Source: Candidatus Staskawiczbacteria bacterium | GTDB lineage: Bacteria > Patescibacteriota > Minisyncoccia > Minisyncoccales > Staskawiczbacteraceae | Direction: 5' to 3' | Length of the DNA: 64,000 nucleotides | NCBI GenBank assembly: GCA_041661545.1 | Contig: JBAZUH010000001.1 | Location: 467,877-531,876, forward strand | Shown here: piece after piece, positions 2,974 to 45,740 of the stretch | How the letters are laid out: every line of letters begins with the position of its first letter | Numbering within the stretch: the first letter of the stretch is position 1 | The notes under the pieces: generated by a model | The model's input: the letters and a program-made list of their open reading frames with translations, nothing else | The model's database searches: none | Told to the model about the DNA's origin: nothing | Translations under genes and position numbers: made by a program

Positions 2974-3366
2974 TTAAATTTTTTCTACAGTTGTCCAGTC
3001 ACCATCTACCCACAACATTACTATTTCAATTGGAAAACCAAATGAACCAATAACTTCTTTGCATTTTTTAAGTTGTTCAATTTGTTCTTCTTTTTCAGCT
3101 GGATTTCCAGCACATCCAAAGTGCCCAACAATTGCTAACTGCTTAGAACCGTGATGATGAACTGAAATTTCAACTCTTTTTTTAATATCATCAATAACTG
3201 CCATATCGCAATCATTTTTTTCGCATAAAATTTTATTTGGACCAGGCTCGGTTATCATGTCTACATAATCAACGCCATAATTTTTTTTCATATAATCTTT
3301 AACCGCATCTTGAACCCTACCGTCCATACAATTTATTGCACACGCAAAAGTTTTATCTGTTGTCAT
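2974..3366 (-). CDS. Hypothetical small protein with beta-carbonic-anhydrase-like CxDxR / HxxC motifs
   Basis: 130-aa ORF with host-like composition. Motifs NCMDGR and GHFGCAG are present. The functional call is tentative. Confidence 0.55.
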   Translation of the reverse strand: MTTDKTFACAINCMDGRVQDAVKDYMKKNYGVDYVDMITEPGPNKILCEKNDCDMAVIDDIKKRVEISVHHHGSKQLAIVGHFGCAGNPAEKEEQIEQLKKCKEVIGSFGFPIEIVMLWVDGDWTTVEKI

Positions 3367-3463
3367 AATTTAAAATTTAATTTTATATAAATAAAAATAT
3401 CATAAAAACTAATATTTTACAAATTGACTTTAGTGTATTTTGGGGTTAGAATAAAAACCACTT

Positions 3464-3548
3464 GGAGGAGTCGCATAGTGGCTATTGCACCGGTCTTGAA
3501 AACCGGAATCCTTCACAGGATTCGTGAGTTCGAGTCTCACCTCCTCCG
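3464..3548 (+). tRNA. tRNA-Ser(UGA)
   Basis: Hand-folded cloverleaf: acceptor GGAGGAG/CTCCTCC, anticodon loop CTTGAAA, long variable arm, T-loop TTCGAGT. Confidence 0.9.
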
Positions 3549-7938: not shown

Positions 7939-10900
7939 TTACTGACCTGCAAGATATAAGCTGACTAACGACACTAGCGCAGTTATAATTCTTTGATAAA
8001 TATTTATTATGACAATTCTATTTTCTTCTGTAGTTGGAGGAGTGGTTGGTGGAGTTGTTGGCTGTAAATTTGTTGGAGGTGGAGTTGTTGGCTGTGTGGG
8101 TATTTTATTGCTTGTGCCAAATAAGCTTAAAATAGATAATCTAATTTGATTTAAAGATTGGCCTATATAATCAAGTATTGCTTGAGGTGTAGTTTGGGTT
8201 GCAACTGGAATAATCGTAATAATTGGTTGACCTGGCGTTGCCCCACTACTTACGACCGTCTCTGTACAAGCATTGTTTGTACATGCAAATCCAAATTCAC
8301 AATCATCATCAACTGCACACGAGGTTCCTGCTCCGCCCACTGTTACCGTAATCTCTTCTTCACCATAAACAGCCGAGCCATCATTTGCCGTAGCTCGCAC
8401 AGTAACTGTTCCTACATCAGTAGCTGTCAATAAACCTGTTGAAGAATTAATGGTAGCAGACCCTGTTCCATTTGTTACAGACCACGTTACTGTTTTATCA
8501 TTTGCAATTGCTGGTAATACAGATTCGCTCATTTGCAAAGTTGCGCCGTTAACAACTTCTGTAGCATTGCCTGCGCCAGCAACTGTTATGCTTGTTACCA
8601 AGTAATTATAATAATTAACAGTTCCGTTGGCTGTTCCACCAATAGGATTTTCTGAAGGACTATAAACCTCGGCGTCATCAACTATTCCATCGTTATAAGC
8701 AGAATTTTTAAACGTGGCAACGCCTGTTACAATTCCAGTAGAATCGTTATATGTAGAAGCATAAAATGTAGCTGTTCCACCAATTGACCCTGCGTTATAC
8801 GCTGTATCGGTTCCATCTAAAACTCCAAAAACCGCGTTACCGGTTATAATTCCTGTAGCACCATTATATGAAGAAACTCCGGTACCCGTAAAAGTGTTCG
8901 TATCTGTAGTCCCATTATTTTTCTTTATTATTCCTAAGTTTGTTGTAACTGCTCCATTATTTGTGGTAACAGTTTTGCCCGAATTGTTAGTTACAACAGT
9001 CCCCGTATCAGAATTGGTTGTAACAGTTCCGTTGTTGGTGGTTACTGTAAGGTTGTTGGTAGTTACAGTTCCGCTGTTAGTAGTAACTATTCCGTTATTC
9101 GTGGTAACTGATCTACTCAAATTATTAGTTACAACAGTTCCTGTATCAGAGTTAGTTGTGACTGTTCCGTTGTTTGTAGTTACTGTGAGATTATTTGTGG
9201 TAACAATTCCGCTGTTAGTTGTAATAATTCCATTATTTGTGGTAACAGTTTTGCCTGAATTGTTGGTTACAACAGTTCCTGTAGCAGAATTGGTTGTAAC
9301 AGTTCCATTGTTTGTAGTTACTGTGAGATTATTTGTGGTAACAATTCCGCTGTTAGTGGTAACAGTAAGATTATTTGTAACAACTGTTCCCTCAGATGCG
9401 TTTGTAGTAACTATTCCATTGTTGGTGGTAACAGTAAGATTGTTGGTGGTTACTGTGCCTGTGGCAGAATTAGTTGTGACAGCTCCATTGTTTGTAGCTA
9501 CTGTAAGATCGTTTGTAGTAACTGTTCCATCAACACCGTTAGTTGATACAACCCCGCTGTTAGCGGTAATTGTGCTATTGTTGGTTGCTACAACGCCCGT
9601 AGCTCCATTTGAATTAAGCACCGCACTATTTGTTATAATATTTCCTAAGTTTGCGTTAGTTACTGCTCCTAAATTGTTTGTAATGGTTGCATCATATGGG
9701 TTTGTAGTAACAGTTCCTGTAGCAGAGTTGGTTGTAACAGTTCCGTTGTTGGTGGTTACTGTAAGGTTGTTGGTGGTTACGGTTCCGCCCGAATTGTTAG
9801 TTACGACAGTTCCGTTGTTGGTGGTAACTGTTCCATTATTTATGGTTATAATACCTGTAGCACCAACACTACAACTTCCTGTACCAGATAATTCTCCTAC
9901 TGTTCCCGTAATGGTTGTAACGGTACCATTATTATTATAAAGACCAATGCCAGCACCGTTATTAAGCAACAAGGTTCCACTAATATCTGTAATAGTGCCA
10001 ACATTATGTATTCCATAATTACTAGTATTATTATTTAAAGTTCCACTAATGTCAGTTATTATGCCCCCAGAATAATTAAATATTCCAGAAGTGCCATTAT
10101 TATTATTCAAAGTTCCACTAATATCAGCTATAACACCTTCGTTATAAATACCATAGCTGGCACTGTTATTATCAAAGGTTCCTGTAATATCAACAATTGT
10201 CCCTTGGTTTGTGATATAATATCCATTTGAAATAGCCACGTTACCAAGAGTAACCGAATTCCCATTTAGAATGAAAGGGCCATTAGAACCAGCACTAATT
10301 TCTACCGTAGCACCGTCTGAAGGCACTTGATTTTCTTGCCAATTACCTGCGGTGTTCCAATCTGTGGTGTCGCTACCATCCCAATGATAAGTAGGTTCTG
10401 CATCTACTGCTGTTATGTCAATTGTTAAGCCACTTCCATCTAATGCAACGCCCGTTGCCACACTATATCCAGTTCCTGGAGCACTTATGTCAATAGATGA
10501 GATAACCCCAGTCGTATCTACTGAATCCACATTTACTGTGCAACTATTCCCTGATCCACCAGATGTTGAAATGCCCGAACCTACGTTATATCCTGATCCT
10601 GCTGTATTTATTGAAACTGCTGTAACCATCCCAAGAGCTACGCCATTTATATCAACAGAGAAATCGTTATTCCCGCCACCATTTGTTGCTATCATAGACC
10701 CTGTACTATAGCCAGAACCTACAGAAGTCAACGTCCAGGCAGTTACCTCTCCACTCCCGCCCACACTATCAACATAAATAGTTGCATTATACGAACCAGC
10801 TTGAATTGTTAAAGTTTCACCACCTAAATACCCAGAACCCTGAGAATATGTTACTACAGATACAACAGCTCCAACAATACCATCAACACTATCAACATTA

Positions 10901-12708
10901 ACATAACCATTAAAGCTATCCGCATATACATTTAAAACATCACCCTGTTGATAACCAGAGCCCCCCGAGCTAAGAGACACGCTTGTTATTGCGTTAGTGG
11001 CTGAATTAGTTGCTGTTACTATAACGCTACCATCATTATTGCCCCCTGGCACTGAAAAAGTTTGACCTATTGGATAATTACTATATCCCGCATTACTCAA
11101 CGAAACACTCACCAATCCATTTGTATAAACTGGGTCTACAATATAATCAAAATCAACACTGCCTATTACTTTTAAATCAAACAGGTCTGTGGGGGTTTGA
11201 AGATTGGTTAATAAAACTTTTTGAGTTTTGGCTTCAGCAATGTTTTCAAATGTTGCAACTAGTGGGCCGTGAGTAACATTTCCATTTTCATCTGTGTACG
11301 CAGGGTAAACTTCAACTTTACCTGGGTTATTTAGGTTGGTTGCTTTAGCATGAATTGTATTATCTTTTGTATTGTCTAAAATGCCATCAAAGGTAACTCT
11401 TACATATTGATTGTTGGTGATGGTGATATAATTGTTGTCTTGGAATCTTACTGTATCATATATATCAGCTAGTATATTTTGTTGTTCATCTAAGTGGAAT
11501 GCTTGGGAGATAAAGATAATATTAAATACTTGGGTTGATAAATGAGGAACTGTCCATTCAACATAGTCTAGTTTACCATTGTTATCTGTGTCGTAGGCAT
11601 GAAATGCAACCTGCTGATTGCTTTCATTTTCCCATTGGATTTGTATTCTATTCTCTTGACCTACTTTAAATATTTCAGGAATCTTGGTTGAGGCTAATAC
11701 GTCGGTAATTGGAGCTGCTGGGTTTTCTTCTACCGAGGAAACTGTTACTTGTTGACCCAAGTCTGTAATTTCTGAAATTATTTCCGTAGTTTGAGTAATA
11801 TATTCTACAGCTACAAAATTTTCTTCTATGATTGGGTCTTCAGTTATGATTGGGTCTTCGGTTATTTCAGGAGCTACTATTGATTCTTCTATCGAAGTTT
11901 CCTGAACTGTTACTTCAGTTGATATTTCTGGTATTATTGGCTCTTCAGTTATAGTTTCTTCTGAAGTTATTGGTGAAACTTCTTGTTCGGTTGTTGGCAA
12001 AACTTCTTGTTCGCCTAAATTTTGTTCTAATAAAATTTCTGTAGGCAAGGCTTCAACAACTTCAGTTATTTCTGAAACTTCTTGTGATATATCAACATAT
12101 GTGGCCTCTGAGGTTTGAATAATTTCTTGAGCTTCTGAGTTGTTAGTAATTACTTCTGTGGCATTTTCTATAGATTCTGACAAATCAGCCGAGAAGTATT
12201 CATAAACATTATTTAAAAACCCCCAAATATCCTTATAAATAGGACTTAATGAAAACATAAATCCTTGATTATTTGAATTTTTCGATGGATATATTGCTAG
12301 CTGTTGTCGTTGAGCTAAAGATAATATATTTGTTGGCTTAGACAAAAGAATTTTATTTGCTGCATCTTTAGTAACTAAAGCTGTTTTTATATTCTTTGCA
12401 TCTTGGGGAAGCTTTACTAAATATTTTCCCTGCATAACTTCGCTCTTAGCTACTAGAGTAGTATATTTTACTTGCTGGCCTACTACAACTTGCTCTTGCA
12501 GTATGGTAGTTCCTGTTGCTATTTTATCTTTTGGTATTTTAGGAAGAAAAATAAAAACACCTATAATTAAAAACATTATTACAGATAGTGAAAATGTAGA
12601 GAGTAGAATGCGGTTGTTTCGTGTTTTCTTTTTTTGATAATTTCCAACAATATCTACAGAAGATATTTCTTTTGAAAATTTTTGATTTTTTATTTTTTTA
12701 TTTAACAT
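7939..12708 (-). CDS. Giant cell-surface protein 1 (N-terminal TM anchor, Thr/Asn-rich tandem repeats, Big_2-like Ig domain, conserved C-terminal tail)
   Basis: 1589 aa from the ATG at 12708 (the track ORF starts at a TTG at 12717). It has a TM helix LLSTFSLSVIMFLIIGVFIFL, about 46-aa TNNGTVTTNS repeats, a Big_2-like segment (ATLQMSESVLP..TVTWSVTNGTGSATINSSTGLLTA) and a Cys-rich knot CAVDDDCEFGFACTNNAC. Confidence 0.9.
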   Translation of the reverse strand: MLNKKIKNQKFSKEISSVDIVGNYQKKKTRNNRILLSTFSLSVIMFLIIGVFIFLPKIPKDKIATGTTILQEQVVVGQQVKYTTLVAKSEVMQGKYLVKLPQDAKNIKTALVTKDAANKILLSKPTNILSLAQRQQLAIYPSKNSNNQGFMFSLSPIYKDIWGFLNNVYEYFSADLSESIENATEVITNNSEAQEIIQTSEATYVDISQEVSEITEVVEALPTEILLEQNLGEQEVLPTTEQEVSPITSEETITEEPIIPEISTEVTVQETSIEESIVAPEITEDPIITEDPIIEENFVAVEYITQTTEIISEITDLGQQVTVSSVEENPAAPITDVLASTKIPEIFKVGQENRIQIQWENESNQQVAFHAYDTDNNGKLDYVEWTVPHLSTQVFNIIFISQAFHLDEQQNILADIYDTVRFQDNNYITITNNQYVRVTFDGILDNTKDNTIHAKATNLNNPGKVEVYPAYTDENGNVTHGPLVATFENIAEAKTQKVLLTNLQTPTDLFDLKVIGSVDFDYIVDPVYTNGLVSVSLSNAGYSNYPIGQTFSVPGGNNDGSVIVTATNSATNAITSVSLSSGGSGYQQGDVLNVYADSFNGYVNVDSVDGIVGAVVSVVTYSQGSGYLGGETLTIQAGSYNATIYVDSVGGSGEVTAWTLTSVGSGYSTGSMIATNGGGNNDFSVDINGVALGMVTAVSINTAGSGYNVGSGISTSGGSGNSCTVNVDSVDTTGVISSIDISAPGTGYSVATGVALDGSGLTIDITAVDAEPTYHWDGSDTTDWNTAGNWQENQVPSDGATVEISAGSNGPFILNGNSVTLGNVAISNGYYITNQGTIVDITGTFDNNSASYGIYNEGVIADISGTLNNNNGTSGIFNYSGGIITDISGTLNNNTSNYGIHNVGTITDISGTLLLNNGAGIGLYNNNGTVTTITGTVGELSGTGSCSVGATGIITINNGTVTTNNGTVVTNNSGGTVTTNNLTVTTNNGTVTTNSATGTVTTNPYDATITNNLGAVTNANLGNIITNSAVLNSNGATGVVATNNSTITANSGVVSTNGVDGTVTTNDLTVATNNGAVTTNSATGTVTTNNLTVTTNNGIVTTNASEGTVVTNNLTVTTNSGIVTTNNLTVTTNNGTVTTNSATGTVVTNNSGKTVTTNNGIITTNSGIVTTNNLTVTTNNGTVTTNSDTGTVVTNNLSRSVTTNNGIVTTNSGTVTTNNLTVTTNNGTVTTNSDTGTVVTNNSGKTVTTNNGAVTTNLGIIKKNNGTTDTNTFTGTGVSSYNGATGIITGNAVFGVLDGTDTAYNAGSIGGTATFYASTYNDSTGIVTGVATFKNSAYNDGIVDDAEVYSPSENPIGGTANGTVNYYNYLVTSITVAGAGNATEVVNGATLQMSESVLPAIANDKTVTWSVTNGTGSATINSSTGLLTATDVGTVTVRATANDGSAVYGEEEITVTVGGAGTSCAVDDDCEFGFACTNNACTETVVSSGATPGQPIITIIPVATQTTPQAILDYIGQSLNQIRLSILSLFGTSNKIPTQPTTPPPTNLQPTTPPTTPPTTEENRIVIINIYQRIITALVSLVSLYLAGQ

Positions 12709-12785
12709 AAACAACAATATATTCTTATTATATTATCATATAATAATTTTAAAAAGGAAGCAACAAATTTAAATATACAATTTCT

Positions 12786-12814
12786 TTGACATAATACAAA
12801 TAAAAGTGTAATAT
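12786..12814 (+). promoter_or_regulatory. Sigma70-type promoter of the C39-like/PEP-CTERM gene
   Basis: TTGACA (12786..12791), a 17-nt spacer, then TAATAT (12809..12814). Confidence 0.6.
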
Positions 12815-12871
12815 AAAGTTGCTTTTCTCGCCTCTTTGAAAATTCAACAACTAGAATGAAAGGAACGCTTT

Positions 12872-13675
12872 ATGAAACATAAGCATATGGTAGCGCTAGC
12901 AATGGCGCTAATGATTTCTTCGGCGAACGCCGTTGTAATAACGGGAGTACCGTCTTACACAAACTATCACGGCTGCTCACCAACTTCTGTCGGCATGATC
13001 CTGGGCTACTGGGATTTACAAGGTTATAGCAACCTTTTTACTGCCTCGGGTAGTGACGTGATGCTGACAACCAACGTCCAGGGCCAAATCTCCTCTGATG
13101 ATCACAATCTCAGATATGATTCAACTCCCGACAACACCACCATCCCAATTTCCTACACAAGCATCGCCGACTATCTTGGGACATCTGTTGATCCATTAGG
13201 ATATGGCGCAAGCTCAGTTGCTACTACAGGGGCAGCTACAGTGGCCTATGCTTCATCGCGTGGGTATACATTCACAACAGCAAACAAAACGTTTTCCAAC
13301 ACTTGGAATGCTCTTGTCGCAGAAGTCAATGCTGGACGGCCAATGCTGTTATTTGTTGATTCTAATGGCGACGGAACAGTTAACCATACCGTGACTGCCA
13401 TAGGTTATGACACCAACTACAATGGAAATGGACAATATTATTTCTGCTACAACACGGGGCATGAAGATGAAGCCATCGTTGATGCTTATAAATTTCAAAG
13501 CTATGTTGGTGGAGGTAAACCATTCGGAGTTTATGGTGGCATCACCGTTAACCCCGGAGTTATTCCCGAGCCAAACACTGCGATGGTTCTCATTGTTACC
13601 GCGATGGGACTTTCATTCATACGGCATCGTGCCGTTTCCCGGACCAACCTCAAGGCCCGGGCTTTTTTTAAATAA
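12872..13675 (+). CDS. Secreted papain-like (peptidase C39-like) protein with a PEP-CTERM-type C-terminal anchor
   Basis: Signal peptide MKHKHMVALAMALMISSANA. Candidate Cys motif GCSPTSVGMILGYW and His motif HTVTAIGYD. The C-terminus IPEPNTAMVLIVTAMGLSFIRHR follows the pattern PEP + TM + basic. Mid-GC composition. Confidence 0.65.
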   Translation: MKHKHMVALAMALMISSANAVVITGVPSYTNYHGCSPTSVGMILGYWDLQGYSNLFTASGSDVMLTTNVQGQISSDDHNLRYDSTPDNTTIPISYTSIADYLGTSVDPLGYGASSVATTGAATVAYASSRGYTFTTANKTFSNTWNALVAEVNAGRPMLLFVDSNGDGTVNHTVTAIGYDTNYNGNGQYYFCYNTGHEDEAIVDAYKFQSYVGGGKPFGVYGGITVNPGVIPEPNTAMVLIVTAMGLSFIRHRAVSRTNLKARAFFK

Positions 13676-13684
13676 ATATACATC

Positions 13685-13721
13685 AAAAAAAATACCCTGA
13701 CTTTACGTTAGGGTATTTTTT
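13685..13721. terminator. Bidirectional intrinsic terminator
   Basis: aaaaaaaATACCCTgactttacgttAGGGTATttttt. Confidence 0.8.
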
Positions 13722-13736
13722 ATTAAATTATAATAA

Positions 13737-16700
13737 TTATTGTGCAGACTCCCCACCAATATACATACCTAATATAGAAATTAAGGTATTTATAATTTTT
13801 TCATAAATATTTATAACTGCTGATCTATTTTCTTCGGACGTTGGTGTTGATGTTGGTGTTTGATTTAAAGGAAGCGTATTGGGTTGTAAATTATCAGGAC
13901 CAGTTGTTGGTTGAGCGGGCGTTATAAAGTTTAATCTTAACAAACCAATAGATTTTCTAATTTCGTCTAAAGCTTGGCCCATATAGATCATTATTGATTG
14001 AGAAGTAGTTTGAATTGCATCTATTGCTAATGGAACTATTGAAGTTGCTGTGTAAGAACCGCCGCCTCCACCACCAACTGTTGGAACTGTTATGGTGGCT
14101 GTAGCAGTATGGTCTCCGTCTGTGGTAGTTACTGTTATTGTGGCTGTTCCAGCTGATATTGCTGTTACTAATCCTGTGTCGCTAACTGTGGCAACCGATG
14201 TATTGCTTGAAGACCAGGTTACACTTGAGTCTGTTGCATTGTCTGGAGCAACTGTGCTTGTGAGTTGGTGAGTTGCATCAACTAAGATGCTGGCTGTGCT
14301 GTCATCTAATGTAACTCCTGTGACAGAAATATTTAAAGTTGTTACTGTAATTTCTAATTCTCCATATACATTAGAACCATCATTAGCTGTTGCTCGCACT
14401 GTTACTGCTCCTACGCCTGTTGCTGTTAACAACCCAGAAGAATTAATTGTAGCGGTTCCTGTTCCATCTGTTTTTGACCATGTTACAGTTTGGTCTGTTG
14501 CATCTACAGGTAAAATTGATACAGACATTTGTAAAGTTGAGCCGTTAACAACTGTTGTTGCTGATTCTGCGCCAGAGACGGTGATGCTAGAAACTAATGT
14601 ATCTTCTGGTGCAATTTCTGCACAAACCCCATCTGCGCATTCTAATCCAAAATCGCAATCATCATTAATTGCGCAAACCGAGCCTGCACTCATGTCTGAA
14701 CAATAACCATTGCTAGTGCAAAAAGCTGAACTACAATCACCTCCCACTGTACATGCTTCACCATTTGCTGCTGGTGGAGCAGGAGGTATCTCCACGCATT
14801 GATTTGTATCCCATGTATAACCCTCTGAACACAAATATGTTCCACTATAATCGGTTACTGTGGCGCCGGTAAAATCTGGAGGGCCATAAGCAGATCCGGT
14901 CATATCAATTGTTCCATAATTATCTACTGTGCTTGTATATGTTCCACCGTAAATAGTTCCTACGATTTGGTTAATTGCACTTACAACATAATTTCCTGCA
15001 TAGATATCACCCGAATTATCAATCCCCCAACCATCTCCCGTGTTAGTTAGTGTGCCCGTAATATTTGCGATACTTCCATGATTATCAATGCCATAACCAG
15101 TGAGAGTATTTGCAACAGTTCCCGAAATATCAGTAATTGCACCACCATTATAAATACCAGATCCGTTGTCACTATTATTAATGGTTCCTGAAATATTGGT
15201 GATAGTGCCACCATTAAATACGCCGTAGCTAGTATCACCGCTACTATTTATTGTTATAGAAGCAATTGTAACTCCCGTAACACTACCTGAAACATATACT
15301 CCACGGCCACTGCCTGATACATTAATAGAATATGAACTACCTCCACTCAACGTAACGTTGCTTGCGCTAATAACAATACAATTTCCACTAGATACAGACA
15401 AATCTGTGGTTAAGGTGTAAGTACCTGATGAAGTTATTGTTCCACAAGTGCCAACGCTAGTGGTAAGAGGCAATACACACATTGCGTTGCTTAAGTTATC
15501 TGCGCCCAACACTTTATTGATACTTGTACAATCAAAGCTAGTTACAGGGGTAACTGTTCCACTGTTGTTAGTAATTGTTCCAACAATTGTAAGGCCCGCA
15601 TTAAGGTTAAGAGTTCCAGCAGCTTCTACGGTTATATTGCCTGTAATAGTGCCCGCCCCATTAACAACCCCATCATAAACAACAAATCCCACCCCACTAC
15701 TAGTATTATTTATTGTAGCTGTATTGGTGACTGTAATTGTGCCAGAATTATATACACCATAGCCTGCACCACTGTTAGTAACTGTTCCTGAAATATTAGA
15801 AATCGTAGCACCATCATTATTCACAATACCATAACCACTTGCATCGGTGTTTTCAACAGCTCCTGAAATATTGGTAATTGTTCCCAAGTTATAAATACCA
15901 TAGTTATTGGCATTATTGGTGAAGGTTCCCGAAATGTCGGTGATAACAGCATTAGCGTTATTAGTAATACCAACGACACTAGTATTAGTAAATGTTCCTG
16001 AAATATCTGTAATGGTGCCGTAGTTACTAATACCACCATTAGAATTTATAACTGTTCCTGAGATATCGGTGATAATAGCATAAACATTGTTGACAATGCC
16101 ATTACCGCCACCACTAATTGTAAGAGCCCCTGAAATATCAGTTATTGTGCCATAGTTACTAATAATGTTACCTGCACCGCTATTTGTAATAGTGCCCGTA
16201 ATATCAGTAATAATTCCAGAGGTGTCATTATAAATACCAATATTACCAGAACTATTATCAAAAGTTCCGCTAATATTTGTAATTAATCCTTGGTTTAAGA
16301 TAGCTTGACTGGCCGAACCAGTAAAAGAAATCGTTCCGGTTATATCAACAATAGTGCCCTGGTTGATAAGATAATATCCCGATGAACTACTAATAGTTAA
16401 ATTTAAAATTGTGACTGAGGTACCACTTGGAATAACAGGGCTATTCATTGCACTATCTACAATTTGTACTGAAGTGCCCTCTGGAGGGACAACATAATCT
16501 TGCCAATTTGATGAATCGTTCCAATCTGTACTATAAGAACCTACCCAAGTGTAAAGGGGTTCTGCATCTACTGCTGTTATATCAATTGCTAAACCATTCA
16601 TATCTAACGAAACGCCACTTGTTACTGAATATCCAGTTCCCGGGGCACTTATTGAAATAGATGATATAGTTCCAGCAATAGAATCTATATTTATTGAACA

Positions 16701-18911
16701 GTCTGACCCAGAGCCACCAGTTGCTGAATTAGAACCTGTGCCATAGTTGCTTCCCCCAGAAGATAATGAAATACCAGTTACTGTTCCCTGACCTGCTGAT
16801 ATACTAACTTCAAATCCAGAACCACTCCCGCCAGACGTACCAACAAAGCTATTAGAAGAATAATTAGTTCCGCCGTATGATACTGAAAATGATGTTACCT
16901 CACCACTACTGCCCACGCCACTAATGTAAATCGTAGCGTTATAGTCTCCTGAACTAATTGTAACTTCATTGCCCTCAGTATAGCCACTTCCTGCCATATA
17001 GGTACTTGCATCATAAACTACGCCATAAGGTCCATCCACAGATGTTACAGTAACATATCCATCATAATTACCGCCTTGAACAGTCAAAGAATCATTTTCT
17101 TGGAACCCATAACCACCTGAGTTGAGAGAAACGCTTGATATGCTACCTGTTCCTCCAGAAATTTCTGCTACGCTTATACTGCCGTCGCTATTCCCACCTG
17201 GGACTGAAATAACTTGACCTACTGAATAATAGCCATATCCTGCACTATTTAACGAAACACTCACCAATCCACTTGTATAAACAGGGTCTACAATATAGTC
17301 TATGTCAACACTTCCGATAATTTTTAAGTCAAATAAGTCGGTGGGGGTTTGGAGGTTGGTCAATAAAACTTTGTGGGTTTTGGCTTCAGCAATATTTTCA
17401 AACGTTGCAACTAGTGGGCCGTGTGTGACATTTCCGTTTTCATCGGTGTATGCAGGATAAACCTCTATTCTAGCTGGGTTGTTTGGGTCAGTTGCTTTGG
17501 CATGAATTGTATTATCATTTGTATTATCTAAAATGCCATCAAATGTAACTCTTACATATTGATTGTTGGTGATGGTGGTATAGTTGTTGTCTTGGAATCT
17601 TACTGTATCATATATATCAGCTAGTATATTTTGTTGTTCATCTAAGTGGAATGCTTGGGAGATAAAGATAATATTAAATACTTGGGTTGATAAATGAGGA
17701 ACTGTCCATTCAACATAGTCTAGTTTACCATTGTTATCTGTGTCGTAGGCATGAAATGCAACCTGCTGATTGCTTTCATTTTCCCATTGGATTTGTATTC
17801 TATTCTCTTGACCTACTTTAAATATTTCAGGAATCTTGGTTGAGGCTAATACGTCGGTAATTGGAGCTGCTGGGTTTTCTTCTACCGAGGAAACTGTTAC
17901 TTGTTGACCACTGTCAGTTACTTCGGCCACTATTTCGGTAGCTACAGTAGTATATTCTATGGCTACAAATTCTTCTGGAACATTTTCAACCACTGGGGTT
18001 ATTGCTAATTCTTCGGCTGGTGCTTCAATAGGTGTTTCTGTTGATGTTCCAACAGAAGTTTCTGATGATATAGGCTCCTCGGCCTGCACTTCTTCGGCTG
18101 GAACTTGTGCTAACATTTGTTCCGGTATTTCTGGCATTATCAATTCTTGGGTTGTAGCTTCTTCTAAAACTGGGGCTTCTGTTTCTTGCTCACTTGAATT
18201 TTGCTCTAATATAGCCTCAACAATTGGGGTTGTTTCTATTTCTGGTGCAATAGTTGTTGCTTCCAACGATATATCAACATAAGTGGCTTCTGGGGTTTGA
18301 GTAATTTCTTGTGTTTCTGAGTTGTTAGTAACTACTTCTGTGGCATTTTCTATGGCCTCTGACAAATCAGCAGATAAATATTTATAAACATTATTTAAAA
18401 AACCAGATAAAAATTTAAAAGAAGGACTTAACGATGCTGAAAATATTTGATTATTATTATTTGTTGGCAAAATTGCCAATTGTTGCCTTTGTGCTAAAGA
18501 CAATATTTTATTTGGCTTAGATGATAAAATTTGATTGGCTGTATTATTATTAATTGTGCTTACCTTAATATTCTTTGCATTTTGAGGAAGTTTTGCTAAA
18601 TATTTTCCATTTATAACTTCGCTTTTTGCTACTAAAGTAGTATATTTTACTTGCTGGCCTGCTACAACTTGCTCTTGCGGTATGGTAGTTGAACTAGCCA
18701 CCTTGTCTTTGGGTATTTCAGGAAGAAAAACAAAAACACCAGCCACTAAAAATGCAACCAAAGATAATGAAAACGTTGAAAACAGAGTGCGGTTGTGCTG
18801 TTTTTTTTCTTTTTTATACTTATAGGCCTGGACTAACTCATCGGGTATAACTATCTCATCAGAGGATAAATTTATATTAGTATCTATTTTTTTATTTTTT
18901 TCAGAAGTCAT
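13737..18911 (-). CDS. Giant cell-surface protein 2 (paralog of giant gene 1; beta-helix-like ITDISGT repeats, two or three Big_2-like domains, Cys-rich knots)
   Basis: 1724 aa. The N-terminal 560 aa or so are homologous to giant gene 1, including a 326-nt identical block. Repeats of about 20 aa (GTITDISGTxTN), Big_2-like segments and the same type of C-terminal tail. Confidence 0.9.
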   Translation of the reverse strand: MTSEKNKKIDTNINLSSDEIVIPDELVQAYKYKKEKKQHNRTLFSTFSLSLVAFLVAGVFVFLPEIPKDKVASSTTIPQEQVVAGQQVKYTTLVAKSEVINGKYLAKLPQNAKNIKVSTINNNTANQILSSKPNKILSLAQRQQLAILPTNNNNQIFSASLSPSFKFLSGFLNNVYKYLSADLSEAIENATEVVTNNSETQEITQTPEATYVDISLEATTIAPEIETTPIVEAILEQNSSEQETEAPVLEEATTQELIMPEIPEQMLAQVPAEEVQAEEPISSETSVGTSTETPIEAPAEELAITPVVENVPEEFVAIEYTTVATEIVAEVTDSGQQVTVSSVEENPAAPITDVLASTKIPEIFKVGQENRIQIQWENESNQQVAFHAYDTDNNGKLDYVEWTVPHLSTQVFNIIFISQAFHLDEQQNILADIYDTVRFQDNNYTTITNNQYVRVTFDGILDNTNDNTIHAKATDPNNPARIEVYPAYTDENGNVTHGPLVATFENIAEAKTHKVLLTNLQTPTDLFDLKIIGSVDIDYIVDPVYTSGLVSVSLNSAGYGYYSVGQVISVPGGNSDGSISVAEISGGTGSISSVSLNSGGYGFQENDSLTVQGGNYDGYVTVTSVDGPYGVVYDASTYMAGSGYTEGNEVTISSGDYNATIYISGVGSSGEVTSFSVSYGGTNYSSNSFVGTSGGSGSGFEVSISAGQGTVTGISLSSGGSNYGTGSNSATGGSGSDCSINIDSIAGTISSISISAPGTGYSVTSGVSLDMNGLAIDITAVDAEPLYTWVGSYSTDWNDSSNWQDYVVPPEGTSVQIVDSAMNSPVIPSGTSVTILNLTISSSSGYYLINQGTIVDITGTISFTGSASQAILNQGLITNISGTFDNSSGNIGIYNDTSGIITDITGTITNSGAGNIISNYGTITDISGALTISGGGNGIVNNVYAIITDISGTVINSNGGISNYGTITDISGTFTNTSVVGITNNANAVITDISGTFTNNANNYGIYNLGTITNISGAVENTDASGYGIVNNDGATISNISGTVTNSGAGYGVYNSGTITVTNTATINNTSSGVGFVVYDGVVNGAGTITGNITVEAAGTLNLNAGLTIVGTITNNSGTVTPVTSFDCTSINKVLGADNLSNAMCVLPLTTSVGTCGTITSSGTYTLTTDLSVSSGNCIVISASNVTLSGGSSYSINVSGSGRGVYVSGSVTGVTIASITINSSGDTSYGVFNGGTITNISGTINNSDNGSGIYNGGAITDISGTVANTLTGYGIDNHGSIANITGTLTNTGDGWGIDNSGDIYAGNYVVSAINQIVGTIYGGTYTSTVDNYGTIDMTGSAYGPPDFTGATVTDYSGTYLCSEGYTWDTNQCVEIPPAPPAANGEACTVGGDCSSAFCTSNGYCSDMSAGSVCAINDDCDFGLECADGVCAEIAPEDTLVSSITVSGAESATTVVNGSTLQMSVSILPVDATDQTVTWSKTDGTGTATINSSGLLTATGVGAVTVRATANDGSNVYGELEITVTTLNISVTGVTLDDSTASILVDATHQLTSTVAPDNATDSSVTWSSSNTSVATVSDTGLVTAISAGTATITVTTTDGDHTATATITVPTVGGGGGGSYTATSIVPLAIDAIQTTSQSIMIYMGQALDEIRKSIGLLRLNFITPAQPTTGPDNLQPNTLPLNQTPTSTPTSEENRSAVINIYEKIINTLISILGMYIGGESAQ

Positions 18912-18935
18912 TGATTTAGTATTTAATAATAAAAA

Positions 18936-19424
18936 CTATTTTGTTATAATATTGCATTCATTTTCACTAAAAAATATTTTACACATATTATTTAACAAAC
19001 TCATTGTACTTTCTATTGGTAAATCGTTAGTGTTGGCCACTTCTTCTAATGATAACATCCCTTTTTGCAAATTTTCTAAAGAAATAATTTTTAAATTATC
19101 TAATCTTACCCACCCGGCTTTTTCAGACCAAACCCATCCAGAAACCATGCCATCTAAATTAACGCTTGCGCCTCCGTAATTAGGGTTAAAATTAATCCAT
19201 CCAACATTTTGCGAATATCCATAACCAATTAAATTGTTTTCGTTATCTTTTATAATTTTATAATCAATTAAATTACATGAATCTGTGTTTAAACAATTTA
19301 AAGATATCCAGCCTGCATTTTCAGAATAAATATACCCTACTATATCTTGGCTATTTGCGCTAACAAGAAAAGCAAAACTAATACTTATTAGTATAAAGAA
19401 TAATAGAATAGTTAATTTTGGCAT
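18936..19424 (-). CDS. Secreted repeat protein (SENxGWIxxN repeats)
   Basis: Signal peptide followed by three repeats: SENAGWISLN, SQNVGWINFN and SEKAGWVRLD. Confidence 0.55.
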   Translation of the reverse strand: MPKLTILLFFILISISFAFLVSANSQDIVGYIYSENAGWISLNCLNTDSCNLIDYKIIKDNENNLIGYGYSQNVGWINFNPNYGGASVNLDGMVSGWVWSEKAGWVRLDNLKIISLENLQKGMLSLEEVANTNDLPIESTMSLLNNMCKIFFSENECNIITK

Positions 19425-19516
19425 AAGTATAATTTTTATAAAAAACTTTTAAATATATTATATTATTATACGTCCTATATATTTTTTAGCAAGCATTACA
19501 CCTGTGCATAAACTAT

Positions 19517-19541
19517 AAAAAAACCCCGCTAAGCGGGGTTA
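19517..19541 (-). terminator. Intrinsic terminator of the GT2 gene
   Basis: Minus strand reads CCCCGCttagGCGGGG followed by a T-run. The same CCCCGCTAAGCGGGG core recurs at about 29900. Confidence 0.7.
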
Positions 19542-19563
19542 ATATTTTTTATAATATAGAAAA

Positions 19564-21102
19564 TTATTTCCTTACCTTCTCGGTAACCCAAAATCCCATG
19601 TATTTGCCTAACATTAAACGAATTTGTGCATCTAGCGCGGGCATAGAACCAAAAACAATTAAAGTAATGGGCAAAAATAGCCACTGCAAAAATACCGATG
19701 ATTTTTTAAACCATCTTATATACCACTTCATATTTTTGGGCACAGGGGGCAAAAGCATTGTACTTAAAATTGCAGAAATAAGCATGCCCACCATTGAAAA
19801 TGTCATAATTTGACCAGTTAAAATTGGTAAATTAAAAGACAAAACAGAAAAGTTAAATTGATTGCCACCTAACAATATAGGCAACCAACCTAACAAAAAT
19901 AAAAGTAAAGCAGCGGTTGCCCAAGACCAAAAACCGTCAATAATTGTATAAAGATGGCCTATTTTTTCTTTTAAAGGTATTTCTTTATTGTTTAAAAAAG
20001 CAAACATCAAATAAGGAATTTCGGCGCAACCCCATGCCCAGCGTTTTTGTTGCTTATATTGATTTAAAACTGTTTTCCATGAATTTTTTGCCATTACCGC
20101 ATCCATAGAAACCAAATAATATATAGGAACCACTCTATAATTTCCGTTGTAATACAAATAAGCTCGCCAAAAAATTCTAGAGTCATCTGAAACAACATTT
20201 GCAGGATATCCAACTTCAAAAAAAGTTTTTGCTGGCGTTGAGTGCGAAGAATAAGTTGTAAGTTTTTCCTCTCTTTCTTGCTGTATCATTTGCCAAAAAG
20301 TATTAGAAGTAGAAACCACTCTAGAAAAAAAGTTAACTGTCCAAATATTGTTATTATAAACTGGCACTGGCTGATAACTGGCAAATTCAGCATCTTTTTC
20401 TGTTAAATAATACCAAGTTAAGCAAGCAAAATACTGTGGAAAAATTTTTGTATCAACATCAAATGTTGAAATTAAAATATTTTCATAAGGAATATTTAAT
20501 TTATCTATAATTTTTTCTTTAACTTCTTTTCCTGCATGTGCAGTATTTGACCCCTTGCCACTTATTTCGCCCACCAATCCATCTGGATGTACAGAAACTA
20601 AAAATTTATAAAATTTGGTTGAATATTTATTAGCAATAATGTTGGCTTGGTCTTCAAAAAATTTTCCAGCTCTTTGTTCTACAGCTAAAACTATTATCAT
20701 TCTTTCTTTAGGATAATTAGATTCTATTAAAGTATTTAAACTCTCCTCTATAAGTTCTTTTCCTTCTCCATAGGTTGGAAGAATAATTACATGATAAATA
20801 TCTTTCCATCGTAACTGCTTTAAATCTTTTAACCAATCTTTTTTCATATGCAACTTAACTTTAAAATAACCTACTACTTGATGCAAAGAAAAATAAAAAA
20901 CTCTAAAAAGATAATAAAAACAAAAACATATAACAAAAATTGCCACTCCCGAAGGAAATAACCATGAAAAAACAAACACACCTAAAAGTGTGCCCAAACT
21001 TAACATTGCAGGAATCATTTCAAAAAATCTATATAATCTCCTGTCTTTTTTATTTTTTATATCTGAAGCTTTAGAAATGTCCAGATAATCTTTTTTCTCC
21101 AT
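19564..21102 (-). CDS. Processive family-2 glycosyltransferase (cellulose/chitin-synthase-like, multi-TM)
   Basis: VIILPTYGEG, FDVDT and the QQKRWAWG (QxxRW) motif, with flanking TM helices. Confidence 0.8.
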   Translation of the reverse strand: MEKKDYLDISKASDIKNKKDRRLYRFFEMIPAMLSLGTLLGVFVFSWLFPSGVAIFVICFCFYYLFRVFYFSLHQVVGYFKVKLHMKKDWLKDLKQLRWKDIYHVIILPTYGEGKELIEESLNTLIESNYPKERMIIVLAVEQRAGKFFEDQANIIANKYSTKFYKFLVSVHPDGLVGEISGKGSNTAHAGKEVKEKIIDKLNIPYENILISTFDVDTKIFPQYFACLTWYYLTEKDAEFASYQPVPVYNNNIWTVNFFSRVVSTSNTFWQMIQQEREEKLTTYSSHSTPAKTFFEVGYPANVVSDDSRIFWRAYLYYNGNYRVVPIYYLVSMDAVMAKNSWKTVLNQYKQQKRWAWGCAEIPYLMFAFLNNKEIPLKEKIGHLYTIIDGFWSWATAALLLFLLGWLPILLGGNQFNFSVLSFNLPILTGQIMTFSMVGMLISAILSTMLLPPVPKNMKWYIRWFKKSSVFLQWLFLPITLIVFGSMPALDAQIRLMLGKYMGFWVTEKVRK

Positions 21103-28563: not shown

Positions 28564-28610
28564 GCGCCCCGAGATCGCCTAGCCAGCGAAATCGAGGGCG
28601 CCCTTTTTTT
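28564..28610 (+). terminator. Intrinsic terminator
   Basis: GCGCCCCGAGAT...ATCGAGGGCGC stem followed by T7. Confidence 0.65.
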
Positions 28611-28672
28611 AAATGAAAATCCCCAAAAATAGCGTTTTTTGACACAAAAAATGCTACCATTTTTGAGGGATA
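28611..28672 (+). repeat. Bulged hairpin repeat R1 (subfamily A)
   Basis: aaatgaaaATCCCCAAAAATAGCGTTTTTTGacaCAAAAAATGCTAccaTTTTTGaGGGAT. Confidence 0.85.
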
Positions 28673-28678
28673 AATAGG

Positions 28679-28741
28679 CATCCTTCCAAATATCGATTTG
28701 CGACACGCAAATTGATACCATTTGGGGGGATAAAATTTTTT
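28679..28741 (+). repeat. Bulged hairpin repeat R2 (subfamily B)
   Basis: CATCCTTCCAAATATCGATTTGCGacaCGCAAATTGATAccaTTTGGGGGGAT. It matches R3 at 51 of 52 positions. Confidence 0.85.
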
Positions 28742-29950: not shown

Positions 29951-30283
29951 CTACACTCCCAACGCGGCACCTATTATATTCAATATCGAGAAGGCTAAAA
30001 TTCCAACTACCACTCCAGCAATTCCCCAAATTAAAGCAGACCTTGCTGCTTGAACTTTTTCTGGTTGTCCTTGAGCTGTTAAAAATAAAATACCAGCAAC
30101 AATAAACATAATAACTGCAATAGCACCAAACACCATCCACATAAGAATTTCTATCTGCTCTATTAATTTTGGCAAATCCTGTATTGAAGCTTCTCCAGGG
30201 GGATAATTTTTATCAAGAGCAAAAACTACAACTGGTAAAGTTAGTGCGGTGACTAAAATTGAATTTAATGTAAATTTATTCAT
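29951..30283 (-). CDS. TrbC/VirB2-like small pilin paralog 4
   Basis: Motif LTAQGQPEKVQAARSALIWGIAG. A long hairpin (core CCCCGCTAAGCGGGG, about 29893..29925) lies downstream. Confidence 0.6.
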   Translation of the reverse strand: MNKFTLNSILVTALTLPVVVFALDKNYPPGEASIQDLPKLIEQIEILMWMVFGAIAVIMFIVAGILFLTAQGQPEKVQAARSALIWGIAGVVVGILAFSILNIIGAALGV

Positions 30284-30295
30284 TTTTTAGATAAA

Positions 30296-30347
30296 CATCC
30301 TCCCAAATATCGATTTGCGACACGCAAATTGATACCATTTGGGGGGA
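30296..30347 (+). repeat. Bulged hairpin repeat R3 (subfamily B)
   Basis: CATCCTCCCAAATATCGATTTGCGacaCGCAAATTGATAccaTTTGGGGGGA. Its minus strand reads ...TTTGGGAGGATG, 13 nt upstream of the start of pilin paralog 4. Confidence 0.85.
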
Positions 30348-30393
30348 ATATTTCTACTTATTTTTATAATTTGTGTAATCGACCTTTATAAAA

Positions 30394-39763: not shown

Positions 39764-39807
39764 GGGGATGTGCGCGTAGCAATACGCGTGCATCCCCCCT
39801 TTTTTTG
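39764..39807 (+). terminator. Strong intrinsic terminator
   Basis: GGGGATGTGCGCGTAgcaaTACGCGTGCATCCCCcc followed by T7. Confidence 0.85.
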
Positions 39808-39813
39808 CACAGG

Positions 39814-39866
39814 CATCCTCCCAAATAGCATTTTTTGACACAAAAAATGTTACCATTTGGGGGGAT
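39814..39866 (+). repeat. Bulged hairpin repeat R4 (subfamily B)
   Basis: CATCCTCCCAAATAGCATTTTTTGacaCAAAAAATGTTAccaTTTGGGGGGAT. Confidence 0.85.
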
Positions 39867-39952
39867 TTTTCATTTATAGAAGACTTTCGTATAATATTTG
39901 AATAAATTTAAAAATTATGATAAACTATATTTATTAATACAGAAAAAAATAT

Positions 39953-43762: not shown

Positions 43763-43925
43763 AAAGAAAAAAATCCAGAGTATTTCTGGTTTTTTTTATT
43801 TGATTGAGCAGAATCGAACTGCAGGATGGGGTCGGGAAGGAGACATCCTTCCCGTATAGGAAATTATTCAAAACCGAGGGTTTTGAAAGAGCGAAGCGAC
43901 AAGTTCCATTTCTGCTCACCCGCTC
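43763..43925 (-). mobile_element. Miniature insertion bounded by a 16-nt direct repeat of the tRNA-Gly(GCC) 3' end; conserved structured core, copy A
   Basis: TTCTGCTCACCCGCTC occurs at 43747..43762 and 43910..43925. The interior holds a terminator hairpin, an inverted T-arm fragment (43805..43824), hairpin CGGGAAGGAgacaTCCTTCCCG (43833..43854) and hairpin TTCAAAACCgagGGTTTTGAA (43867..43887). Confidence 0.6.
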
Positions 43926-44007: not shown

Positions 44008-44041
44008 GACACAGAGCCCTTTCTATGCTAATATATACCCA
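44008..44041 (+). promoter_or_regulatory. Putative promoter of the 3D-domain gene
   Basis: TTGACA, a 17-nt spacer, then TAATAT. An SD-like AAGGGAG lies upstream of the ATG at 44067. Confidence 0.55.
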
Positions 44042-44066
44042 TACTTCCGAAAGGGAGTTTTTAATT

Positions 44067-44561
44067 ATGAATACATTAAAACACGTAAAAAATAGCCTTG
44101 CTTTAGTGGTCAAAACCCGCTTAGCTGGCTCTATATTTGCAAGCATTGTAATTGCTATTTGCGCTGTAGGCATAATCTTGCCTCAAGCCATATATGCTGA
44201 CCCTGCCAATACAGCAAGCGCTTCTTATGTGGCAAAAAATAGTAATGAGATAAAATCAAATGCTATTAAAACTATCAAGGTTAAGGTTACTGCTTATTCA
44301 AGCACTGCAGACCAAACTGATGATACTCCCTTTATAACCGCCTCAGGTAAAAGGGTAAAAGATGGTATAATAGCAAACAACTTATTACCTTTTGGAACAA
44401 AAATTAAAATTCCAAAATTATATGGTGATAAAATATTTACCGTGCAAGATAGAATGAATAAAAAGAAAGGCAACTTCCATATAGATATATGGATGCCAAC
44501 TAGAGGATTGGCACTTAACTTTGGATCCAAAACTGCTGAGATATTAGTTCTAGCAGATTAA
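44067..44561 (+). CDS. 3D-domain (MltA/RlpA-like fold) secreted cell-wall protein
   Basis: VTAYSSTADQTDDTPFITASGKRVKDGIIANNLLPFGTKIKIP...FTVQDRMNKKKGNFHIDIWM. The start is set at MNTLKHV because the upstream ATG at 44025 lies inside the promoter. Confidence 0.8.
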   Translation: MNTLKHVKNSLALVVKTRLAGSIFASIVIAICAVGIILPQAIYADPANTASASYVAKNSNEIKSNAIKTIKVKVTAYSSTADQTDDTPFITASGKRVKDGIIANNLLPFGTKIKIPKLYGDKIFTVQDRMNKKKGNFHIDIWMPTRGLALNFGSKTAEILVLAD

Positions 44562-44608: not shown

Positions 44609-44776
44609 GTGCCCGAGGCGGGACCGCTACGCTAGAACCCGTCGCTCTGCTCCTTCAAAACCCTCGGTTTTGAATAATTTCCTACACGGGAGGAAATGCT
44701 TTCCTCCCGACCCCTCCTTGGGGTTCGACTCCCGCACATTTAAAAAGAACACTATAAATAGTGTTCTTTTTTAATG
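44609..44776 (+). mobile_element. Miniature insertion bounded by a 15-nt direct repeat of the tRNA-Leu(UAA) 3' end; conserved structured core, copy B
   Basis: GTGCCCGAGGCGGGA occurs at 44609..44623 and 44777..44791. Hairpins TTCAAAACCctcGGTTTTGAA (44654..44674) and CGGGAGGAAAtgcTTTCCTCCCG (44687..44709), a T-arm fragment at 44720..44737 and a terminator hairpin at 44741..44773. Confidence 0.6.
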
Positions 44777-45652: not shown

Positions 45653-45679
45653 TCCAGGCACATTGTCTGGATTTTTTTT
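45653..45679 (+). terminator. Intrinsic terminator
   Basis: TCCAGgcacattgtCTGGA followed by T8. Confidence 0.75.
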
Positions 45680-45740
45680 AAATGAATATCCCCAAAAATA
45701 GCGCTTTTCGTCACGAAAAGTGCTACCATTTTTGAGGGAT
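45680..45740 (+). repeat. Bulged hairpin repeat R5 (subfamily A)
   Basis: aaatgaatATCCCCAAAAATAGCGCTTTTCGtcaCGAAAAGTGCTAccaTTTTTGaGGGAT. Confidence 0.85.

Follow-up and report, generated by a model that had tools for sequence, protein, structure and literature searches.

The DNA analysed here, referred to below as the window, is a stretch of 64,000 nucleotides (nt) from Candidatus Staskawiczbacteria bacterium, a member of the Patescibacteriota (GenBank assembly GCA_041661545.1, contig JBAZUH010000001.1, positions 467,877 to 531,876). It contains two genes for probable giant surface proteins, named g1 and g2, which lie in tandem on the same strand as direct repeats and whose products share 51% amino acid (aa) identity over about 1,500 aa. 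A block of 326 nt near the N-terminal end of the two genes is identical base for base. This block is very probably the footprint of a recent non-reciprocal gene conversion between the two paralogs (ectopic conversion), in which at least 326 nt, and possibly about 365 nt, were replaced.

An identical tract between diverged flanks

The initial annotation of the window had reported that positions 11432-11757 in g1 equal positions 17584-17909 in g2. Our comparison matched 326 of 326 bases, and the match is maximal, with the adjoining base differing at each end; the peptide that had been quoted for the block was also correct. A blastn search found only these two copies in the 64-kb window. Both are in frame on the minus strand, and they are 6,152 bp apart.

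The sequences adjoining the block are clearly diverged. On the gene-downstream side (11098-11431) 43 of 334 nt differ, 33 of these at third codon positions, which gives 87% identity (85-90% had been estimated at first); identity then falls to 57-69% by 10700-11100. The other side had been described as essentially unrelated, which is roughly right for the DNA next to the block: 19 mismatches occur in the first 66 nt (71% identity), three of them consecutive at 11758-11760, and beyond these lies an acidic, E/T/P-rich linker that can barely be aligned. The description does not extend to the whole upstream part, however, as identity returns to about 78% in the N-terminal 200 codons. With diverged sequence on either side of the block, the event is a patch, produced by conversion or by a double crossover, and a single unequal crossover giving rise to a hybrid gene is ruled out. 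At the downstream edge, mismatches at 11431 and 11426 are followed by an exact run of 33 nt (Table 1) and then by the ordinary 13% divergence. Possibly this run once belonged to the tract as its tail and was set apart by two substitutions that arose afterwards or by patchy repair.

Synonymous sites and the origin of the tract

To compare synonymous and nonsynonymous changes, g1 and g2 were aligned by codons, and the proportions of differing synonymous (pS) and nonsynonymous (pN) sites were counted for each segment by the method of Nei and Gojobori (NG86). In the block (g1 aa 321-428) both proportions are zero, with no difference at 66.3 synonymous sites, 257.7 nonsynonymous sites and 38 fourfold degenerate sites. 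Immediately after the block, in the rest of the domain that we call domain B (g1 aa 429-560, 132 codons), pS is 0.41 (synonymous divergence dS about 0.6) while pN is only 0.067, and 17 of 52 fourfold sites differ. The 21 codons before the block (g1 aa 300-320) have a pS of 0.38, the linker 0.64, and g1 aa 561-700 a pS of 0.71. With an overall aa identity of 51% and pS of 0.6-0.7 in the linker and the repeats, g1 and g2 are old paralogs. A lowered pS of 0.26-0.29 was also found in the conserved N domain of the pair (aa 53-112 and 173-202), which suggests older conversion patches there.

Chance does not produce such a block. Outside it 62% of the codons are identical, giving a probability of 2.8e-23 for a run of 108 identical codons, and in 100,000 permutations the longest run was 63, so that the observed one was never attained. 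The absence of any difference at 326 sites places the divergence of the block below about 0.9% (95% upper bound), which is under roughly 6% of the 14% seen in the flank. In summary, there are two paralogs in one genome, a tract of 326/326 identity against flanks of 87% and 71%, homogenised synonymous sites and divergence on both sides, all of which are as expected of gene conversion. The initial annotation had proposed two explanations, a recent conversion or a single domain under very strong constraint, and had regarded equally high synonymous identity in the flanks as an argument against its proposal; with flank pS of 0.41 and 0.38 against 0 in the block, the data speak for the former explanation.

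Constraint on the protein is real yet cannot account for the nucleotide identity, because none of the 38 fourfold sites differs while the equally constrained domain B has a pS of 0.41. In a second tandem pair of related genes, L001, which shows no conversion signal, pS in the domain corresponding to most of the block (domain A) is 0.58, so that a low pS is no intrinsic property of domain A. Purifying selection acting on the nucleotide sequence itself, for example on an embedded RNA or DNA element or an overlapping gene, could in principle keep 326 nt identical with no recent recombination, and it is true that the domain encoded by the block is the most conserved one of its family, with invariant columns, and that pN is about zero in two further tandem pairs, L004 and L022, as well. 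Yet synonymous sites vary in this same domain (the pS of 0.58 in L001 and of 0.75-0.91 in parts of L022), and the tract ends inside domain B rather than at a domain edge. Moreover, the block folded as mRNA gave a z score of +0.81, with 82 of 100 shuffled sequences folding at least as well; Rfam detected only tRNAs over the window; the longest antisense open reading frame (ORF) in the block has 44 aa; and promoter-like and terminator-like sites in the block are in no excess over shuffled sequences. A structured RNA or an antisense gene in the block is ruled out by the fold, the Rfam search and the antisense ORFs, and we give almost no credence to selection at the nucleotide level as the cause of the identity.

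Since the source genome is a metagenome-assembled genome (MAG), it had to be considered whether copies that are merely similar had lost their differences through bubble popping, consensus polishing or cross-mapping of reads, or whether, in the extreme case, one copy of the block was brought in by a mis-join. A repeat of 326 nt exceeds typical k-mers and needs read pairs or long reads to be resolved, and the protein collection that includes the products of g2 and of the gene between g1 and g2 has no full-length product of g1, whichever candidate start is used; this absence may reflect another start call or annotation as a pseudogene. The independent evidence came from two contigs, L020 and L025, of the Logan short-read assembly of run SRR18595301. 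L020 corresponds to window positions 11728-17574 and L025 to 17880-20905, both at 100%, so that 8.9 kb of the window is matched. L020 starts exactly 30 nt inside the first copy of the block and L025 ends exactly 30 nt inside the second, the latter end having been predicted before it was looked up; the other end of L020 (17574) lies 30 nt into the 33-nt exact run. From these offsets we took k to be 31, and contig ends that lie k-1 = 30 nt into shared sequence are what is expected of an exact repeat in a de Bruijn graph with k = 31. The independent assembly thus sees the same branch points, 11757/11758 and 17909/17910, which supports the edges of the repeat. In addition, the reading frame is intact in both contexts of the block, both are collinear with homologous flanks, and the contig of 737,971 nt has, by our estimate, roughly the size of a whole genome in this group. 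The flanks are 13-29% diverged, which would bar cross-mapping of reads unless the block was already near-identical, so a conversion-like event would still be needed. Similar mosaics occur in other assemblies, and the duplication of the family is no assembly artefact, as tandem pairs are present in the independent assemblies L001, L004 and L022. We regard an artefact of assembly or polishing as highly improbable.

For the gene conversion that we favour, the following course may be envisaged. A break or gap in one copy would have been repaired by RecA-type recombination with the paralog on the same or the sister chromosome as template, and the repair would have been resolved without crossover, so that both flanks kept their older divergence. 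The tract falls in the most conserved N-terminal part of the genes (domain A with its loop and the start of domain B), where the residual homology would suffice for strand invasion, while the linker and the distal repeat arrays are probably too diverged to take part; the limits of the tract would then be set by homology rather than by selection.

Several points weigh against this interpretation or limit it. Either copy could be the donor. The two genes are each other's closest relatives in every segment, and no orthologous pair was found in sister genomes, the closest of which have pairs of their own or single copies. Both copies could also have received the block from a third, unseen paralog located in another part of the 738-kb genome. 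Finally, the interior of the block could hide a few single-nucleotide differences erased by bubble-popping or polishing; the inference of conversion survives such smoothing, because with flanks 13-29% diverged only copies that were already near-identical could have been smoothed.

The three other tandem pairs were compared in the same way. In L022 (ENA ERZ25039473, contig_172017), whose second copy is broken by a frameshift, there are exact runs of 152 nt in the N domain (2802-2953 = 10124-10275), 98 nt in the linker and hairpin (3126-3223 = 10412-10509) and 56 nt in domain A (3429-3484 = 10715-10770), and the 152-nt run is followed by one mismatch and then a run of 39 nt. Domain A of this pair is 84-92% identical with a pN of about 0-0.03 and a patchy pS of 0.14-0.91, and identity steps down to 58-70% about 20 codons into domain B. 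In L004, from the Patescibacteria MAG RA.bin113, a 206-nt block of domain A (10070-10275 and 18047-18252) is 92.7% identical, with a pS of 0.40 and a pN of 0.04 against 0.81 and 0.35 in domain B; these values suggest that domain A was converted here at an earlier time. L001 gave no signal of conversion (pS 0.58 vs 0.65, and no exact run of 30 nt or more). Judged from these alignments, two of the three other pairs carry similar, older mosaics, and the conserved N-terminal module seems to undergo patchy, ongoing concerted evolution, of which the tract in the window would be the longest and youngest product. In all three converting pairs (the window pair, L004 and L022) the end of the homogenised stretch is no more than about 25 codons away from the junction of domains A and B, and either selection or a limit of homology may account for this.

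A more elaborate explanation is that the patch is kept or used as part of a system of variation, serving as an anchor for recombination by which N-terminal anchors are combined anew with distal adhesive arrays through hybrids, deletions and duplications, or that a shared partner demands an identical domain A. The homogenised segments of the N-terminal module in three of four tandem pairs, their common end point near the A/B junction, the direct orientation, which would permit crossover products, and the exposure of these giants on the surface of organisms that we take to live attached to host cells could all be read in this way. Neutral conversion limited by homology predicts the same pattern, however, as the most conserved segment simply keeps converting. 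L001 shows no such homogenisation, and no silent cassettes, site-specific recombinase or reverse transcriptase were seen among the ORFs scanned. In either form this explanation is, in our opinion, highly improbable.

The encoded module and its genomic setting

AlphaFold2 was used to model g1 aa 298-540 with 23 homologues. The model has a mean predicted local distance difference test score (pLDDT) of 87 and is all-beta with two domains. According to it, the block covers domain A from the second strand to the end, together with the first strand and a short helix of domain B, of which only the first ~17 codons lie inside the tract. Domain A is predicted to be a small beta-sandwich with an EF-hand-like loop, and domain B a second beta-sandwich. 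Modelled alone, domain A had a pLDDT of 80.5 and gave no significant match to folds in the PDB (best E 0.09). A Foldseek search with the two-domain model returned weak matches (E 1e-4 to 1e-2) to galactose-binding-like, carbohydrate-binding module (CBM) and F5/8 type C beta-sandwiches, with TM scores of 0.4-0.5 to the single-domain targets among them; the matches are tentatively attributed to domain B. The module of domains A and B has no sequence match in the PDB or NCBIfam and no Pfam model.

The initial annotation had also pointed out a calcium-loop-like motif in the block. Indeed, DTDNNGKLDYVEW fits a PROSITE-style EF-hand loop pattern, a 12-residue consensus DxDxNGxLDxxE; the motif occurs once per protein, is present in 10 of 15 relatives with domain A, and adjoins invariant W, P and S columns. 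As a loop the motif thus stands, and calcium binding by it is plausible. It is not supported as an EF-hand domain: the Pfam families EF-hand_1/6 are below threshold at DTDNNGKLDYVE (EF-hand_1 16.7 bits, against a cutoff of 25.4), and in the AlphaFold2 models the loop sits between beta-strands with no helix-loop-helix. Because its predicted context is one of beta-strands, we consider it to be an EF-hand-like loop in a beta-sandwich rather than an EF-hand domain.

The whole module of about 230 aa spans 11050-11790 in g1 (aa ~310-556) and 17200-17940 in g2. A profile of it matched 2,262 clusters (at 50% identity) at E <= 1e-3 and 1,319 at E <= 1e-30. In the 150 best matches, whose proteins reach about 4,100 aa in length, the module is mostly located towards the N-terminus, at about residues 100-700, and the named carriers are Candidatus Staskawiczbacteria, other Patescibacteria and DPANN archaea. 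Two loci, L010 and L007, are archaeal by their adjacent RadA (with an intein) and RadB-like genes. Domain A is the most conserved protein domain of the family, with invariant F, D, D, W, P, S, Q, I, A and L columns. The relatives found in genome and metagenome contigs have aa identities of at most 69%. The closest relative outside the window is a single-copy gene for 1706 aa in a different genomic context (L021, 1438-6558, P0024). Within its product, the end of domain A together with domain B occurs a second time (…IIYISKAFQLDAQQN…DYVVDP), so the module can also duplicate within one gene.

The positions of the tract, the genes and the associated features are collected in Table 1. g1 has 1592 codons when counted from the TTG at 12717; the ATG at 12708, where the gene call on the Logan contig places the start, is the more likely start. 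The product of g2 is NCBI entry MFA6190384.1, 'MAG: Ig-like domain-containing protein [Candidatus Staskawiczbacteria bacterium]'. Both proteins have an N-terminal transmembrane anchor, a conserved N domain, an acidic or PT-rich linker, a beta-hairpin and domains A and B, followed by long low-complexity repeat arrays, Big_2, a PT stalk and a hydrophobic C-terminus. The distal part of g1 comprises GSGY-type and TVTTNNG-type repeats, one Big_2-like Ig domain and the PT-rich stalk, and in g2 the Big_2 domains are close to the C-terminus. This architecture is consistent with giant surface proteins, and a function as adhesins may be supposed.

Table 1. Positions in the window of the shared tract and of associated genes, domains and motifs
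Feature	Position	Strand	Details or basis
Tract copy in g1	11432..11757	minus	g1 nt 961-1286, aa 321-428 plus 2 nt
Tract copy in g2	17584..17909	minus	g2 nt 1003-1328, aa 335-442
33-nt exact run	11393..11425 (= 17545-17577)	minus	6 nt with 2 mismatches between run and block
Domain B, predicted CBM/discoidin-like beta-sandwich	11128..11484, about g1 aa 412-530	minus	AlphaFold2, fold search, NG86
EF-hand-like calcium-loop motif (putative) DTDNNGKLDYVEW	11554..11592, g1 aa 376-388; g2 copy 17706-17744	minus	pattern match
g1, giant surface protein gene	7939-12717	minus	ORF, translation, alignment to g2
g2, paralogous giant surface protein gene, 1724 aa	13737-18911	minus	ORF, translation, Pfam Big_2 92 bits
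C39-like peptidase gene between g1 and g2	12872-13675	plus	Pfam Peptidase_C39_2 6.8e-10; NCBI MFA6190383.1

The distal parts of both genes contain degenerate short-repeat arrays (8895-9846 and 14800-16300); the array in g1 has periods of 69/138 nt with TVTTNNG-type units, and I/TDISGT-type units occur in g1 and g2. A 348-aa ORF on the plus strand (8894-9940), antisense to the g1 repeats, is probably spurious. A homologue of the C39-like peptidase gene also adjoins the pair in L001 (16501-17199). Directly upstream of g2 lies a 162-aa ORF (18936-19424), a 47%-identical homologue of which is found upstream of a giant gene in another Staskawiczbacteria contig (L024, 7597-8016). This ORF and the C39-like peptidase gene may be conserved accessory genes. 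The other neighbours in the window are ordinary chromosomal genes, encoding PilM, RecG, TsaD, a class I aminoacyl-tRNA synthetase, GyrA, FtsH, IF-2 and S1; the window has 19 tRNAs and a G+C content of 36.5%.

Three further kinds of repeat were observed in the window. An exact direct repeat of 119 nt (63588-63706 = 63882-64000, with a spacing of 294 nt and cut by the end of the window) lies inside a minus-strand gene for tandem 98-aa T/G/A-rich repeats (…ATEGYTLTGVTENQFTIAGTTGSATNSADSGVITAVFPAT…) and is a second case of homogenisation at the DNA level in a probable surface protein. A hairpin element about 55-68 nt long is dispersed over intergenic regions in five copies with 68-93% identity (two adjacent at 28604-28732, and one each at 30282-30349, 39800-39867 and 45673-45740), often just past the ends of genes. 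It folds well (z -3.2 to -6.4), its inner stem shows compensatory changes (UUUUUUG/CAAAAAA, AUUUGCG/CGCAAAU and CUUUUCG/CGAAAAG), and it could be a repetitive extragenic palindromic (REP)-like element, a terminator or a protein-binding palindrome. Between the genes for tRNA-Gly and tRNA-Leu/Cys, a 57-nt inverted repeat (43850-43906 and 44635-44691, 89% complementary) encloses 728 nt with a 178-aa ORF (44025-44561); this unit may be a small mobile element.

Comparison with known systems and biological meaning

Gene conversion between paralogs belongs to the textbook knowledge of bacterial genome evolution, and several well-known systems resemble the present one in part. In Helicobacter pylori, the dispersed paralogous adhesin genes babA/babB and sabA/sabB swap non-reciprocal patches, usually in the variable receptor-binding middle and with an altered phenotype. 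As in that case, g1 and g2 are full-length paralogous surface genes of one genome that form a mosaic of near-identical and diverged segments; they differ in being arranged in tandem, in having their most conserved domain homogenised, and in belonging to an unrelated protein family and a Patescibacteria host. The tufA and tufB genes of Salmonella and E. coli, which are inverted and far apart, are homogenised over the whole coding sequence by RecA-type conversion. Synonymous sites are likewise identical between two copies on one chromosome here, whereas g1 and g2 share only an island of 326 nt in genes of roughly 5 kb and are direct repeats 6.15 kb apart. Homogenisation at the DNA level of a beta-sandwich domain in large surface proteins is also known from the near-identical adjacent intragenic repeats of Rib/alpha-C and SasG-type proteins of Gram-positive bacteria, but the exchange between g1 and g2 is one between two separate genes.

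In Neisseria pilE/pilS, Borrelia vlsE and Mycoplasma genitalium MgPar, silent truncated donor cassettes move hypervariable segments. Like g1 and g2, these are cases in which a surface-protein gene receives a segment non-reciprocally; here, by contrast, both genes are intact and the segment transferred is a conserved one. We rejected programmed antigenic variation of the cassette type, as both genes are complete ORFs with a start, a transmembrane anchor and a conserved C-terminus, the window has two copies of the block, and the tract is the most conserved domain. A template repeat/variable repeat pair of a diversity-generating retroelement was rejected as well, since the pair has zero differences, the mismatches in the flanks are of all types, and no reverse transcriptase was found among the 20 ORFs scanned, a part of the ORFs in the window. 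A search of the literature yielded no relevant paper on gene conversion in Patescibacteria and none on surface proteins of Staskawiczbacteria.

The event itself is ordinary. Its modest value is that of a clean case from Patescibacteria, very young and with clear limits, in a gene family likely to mediate contact at the cell surface. An exact direct repeat of 326 nt is also a breakpoint for short-read assembly, and deletions of the C39-like peptidase gene could arise there: a crossover between the copies would delete the interval of 6.15 kb including this gene and fuse the N-terminus of g2 to the C-terminus of g1.

A broader proposal is that the N-terminal module (transmembrane anchor, N domain, linker, calcium-loop domain A and domain B) is the hallmark of a large, unannotated family of giant surface proteins of Patescibacteria and DPANN archaea, and that in tandem pairs of the family domain A is repeatedly homogenised, up to tract ends near the A/B junction, for a common partner or as a recombination anchor. 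We consider this proposal unlikely as a whole. If there were a common partner, it would be an anchoring or secretion machinery or a co-assembling component; if domain A were a recombination anchor, it would provide a simple mechanism of surface variation in episymbiotic ultra-small cells.

The tract is evidence of active homologous recombination in a reduced Patescibacteria genome, and of concerted evolution of the conserved anchoring module in these giants, whose distal parts diversify. Of greater use than the tract, perhaps, is the module of ~230 aa, which lacks a Pfam or NCBIfam model and occurs in bacteria as well as archaea, and it is this module and its domain-limited concerted evolution that merit follow-up.

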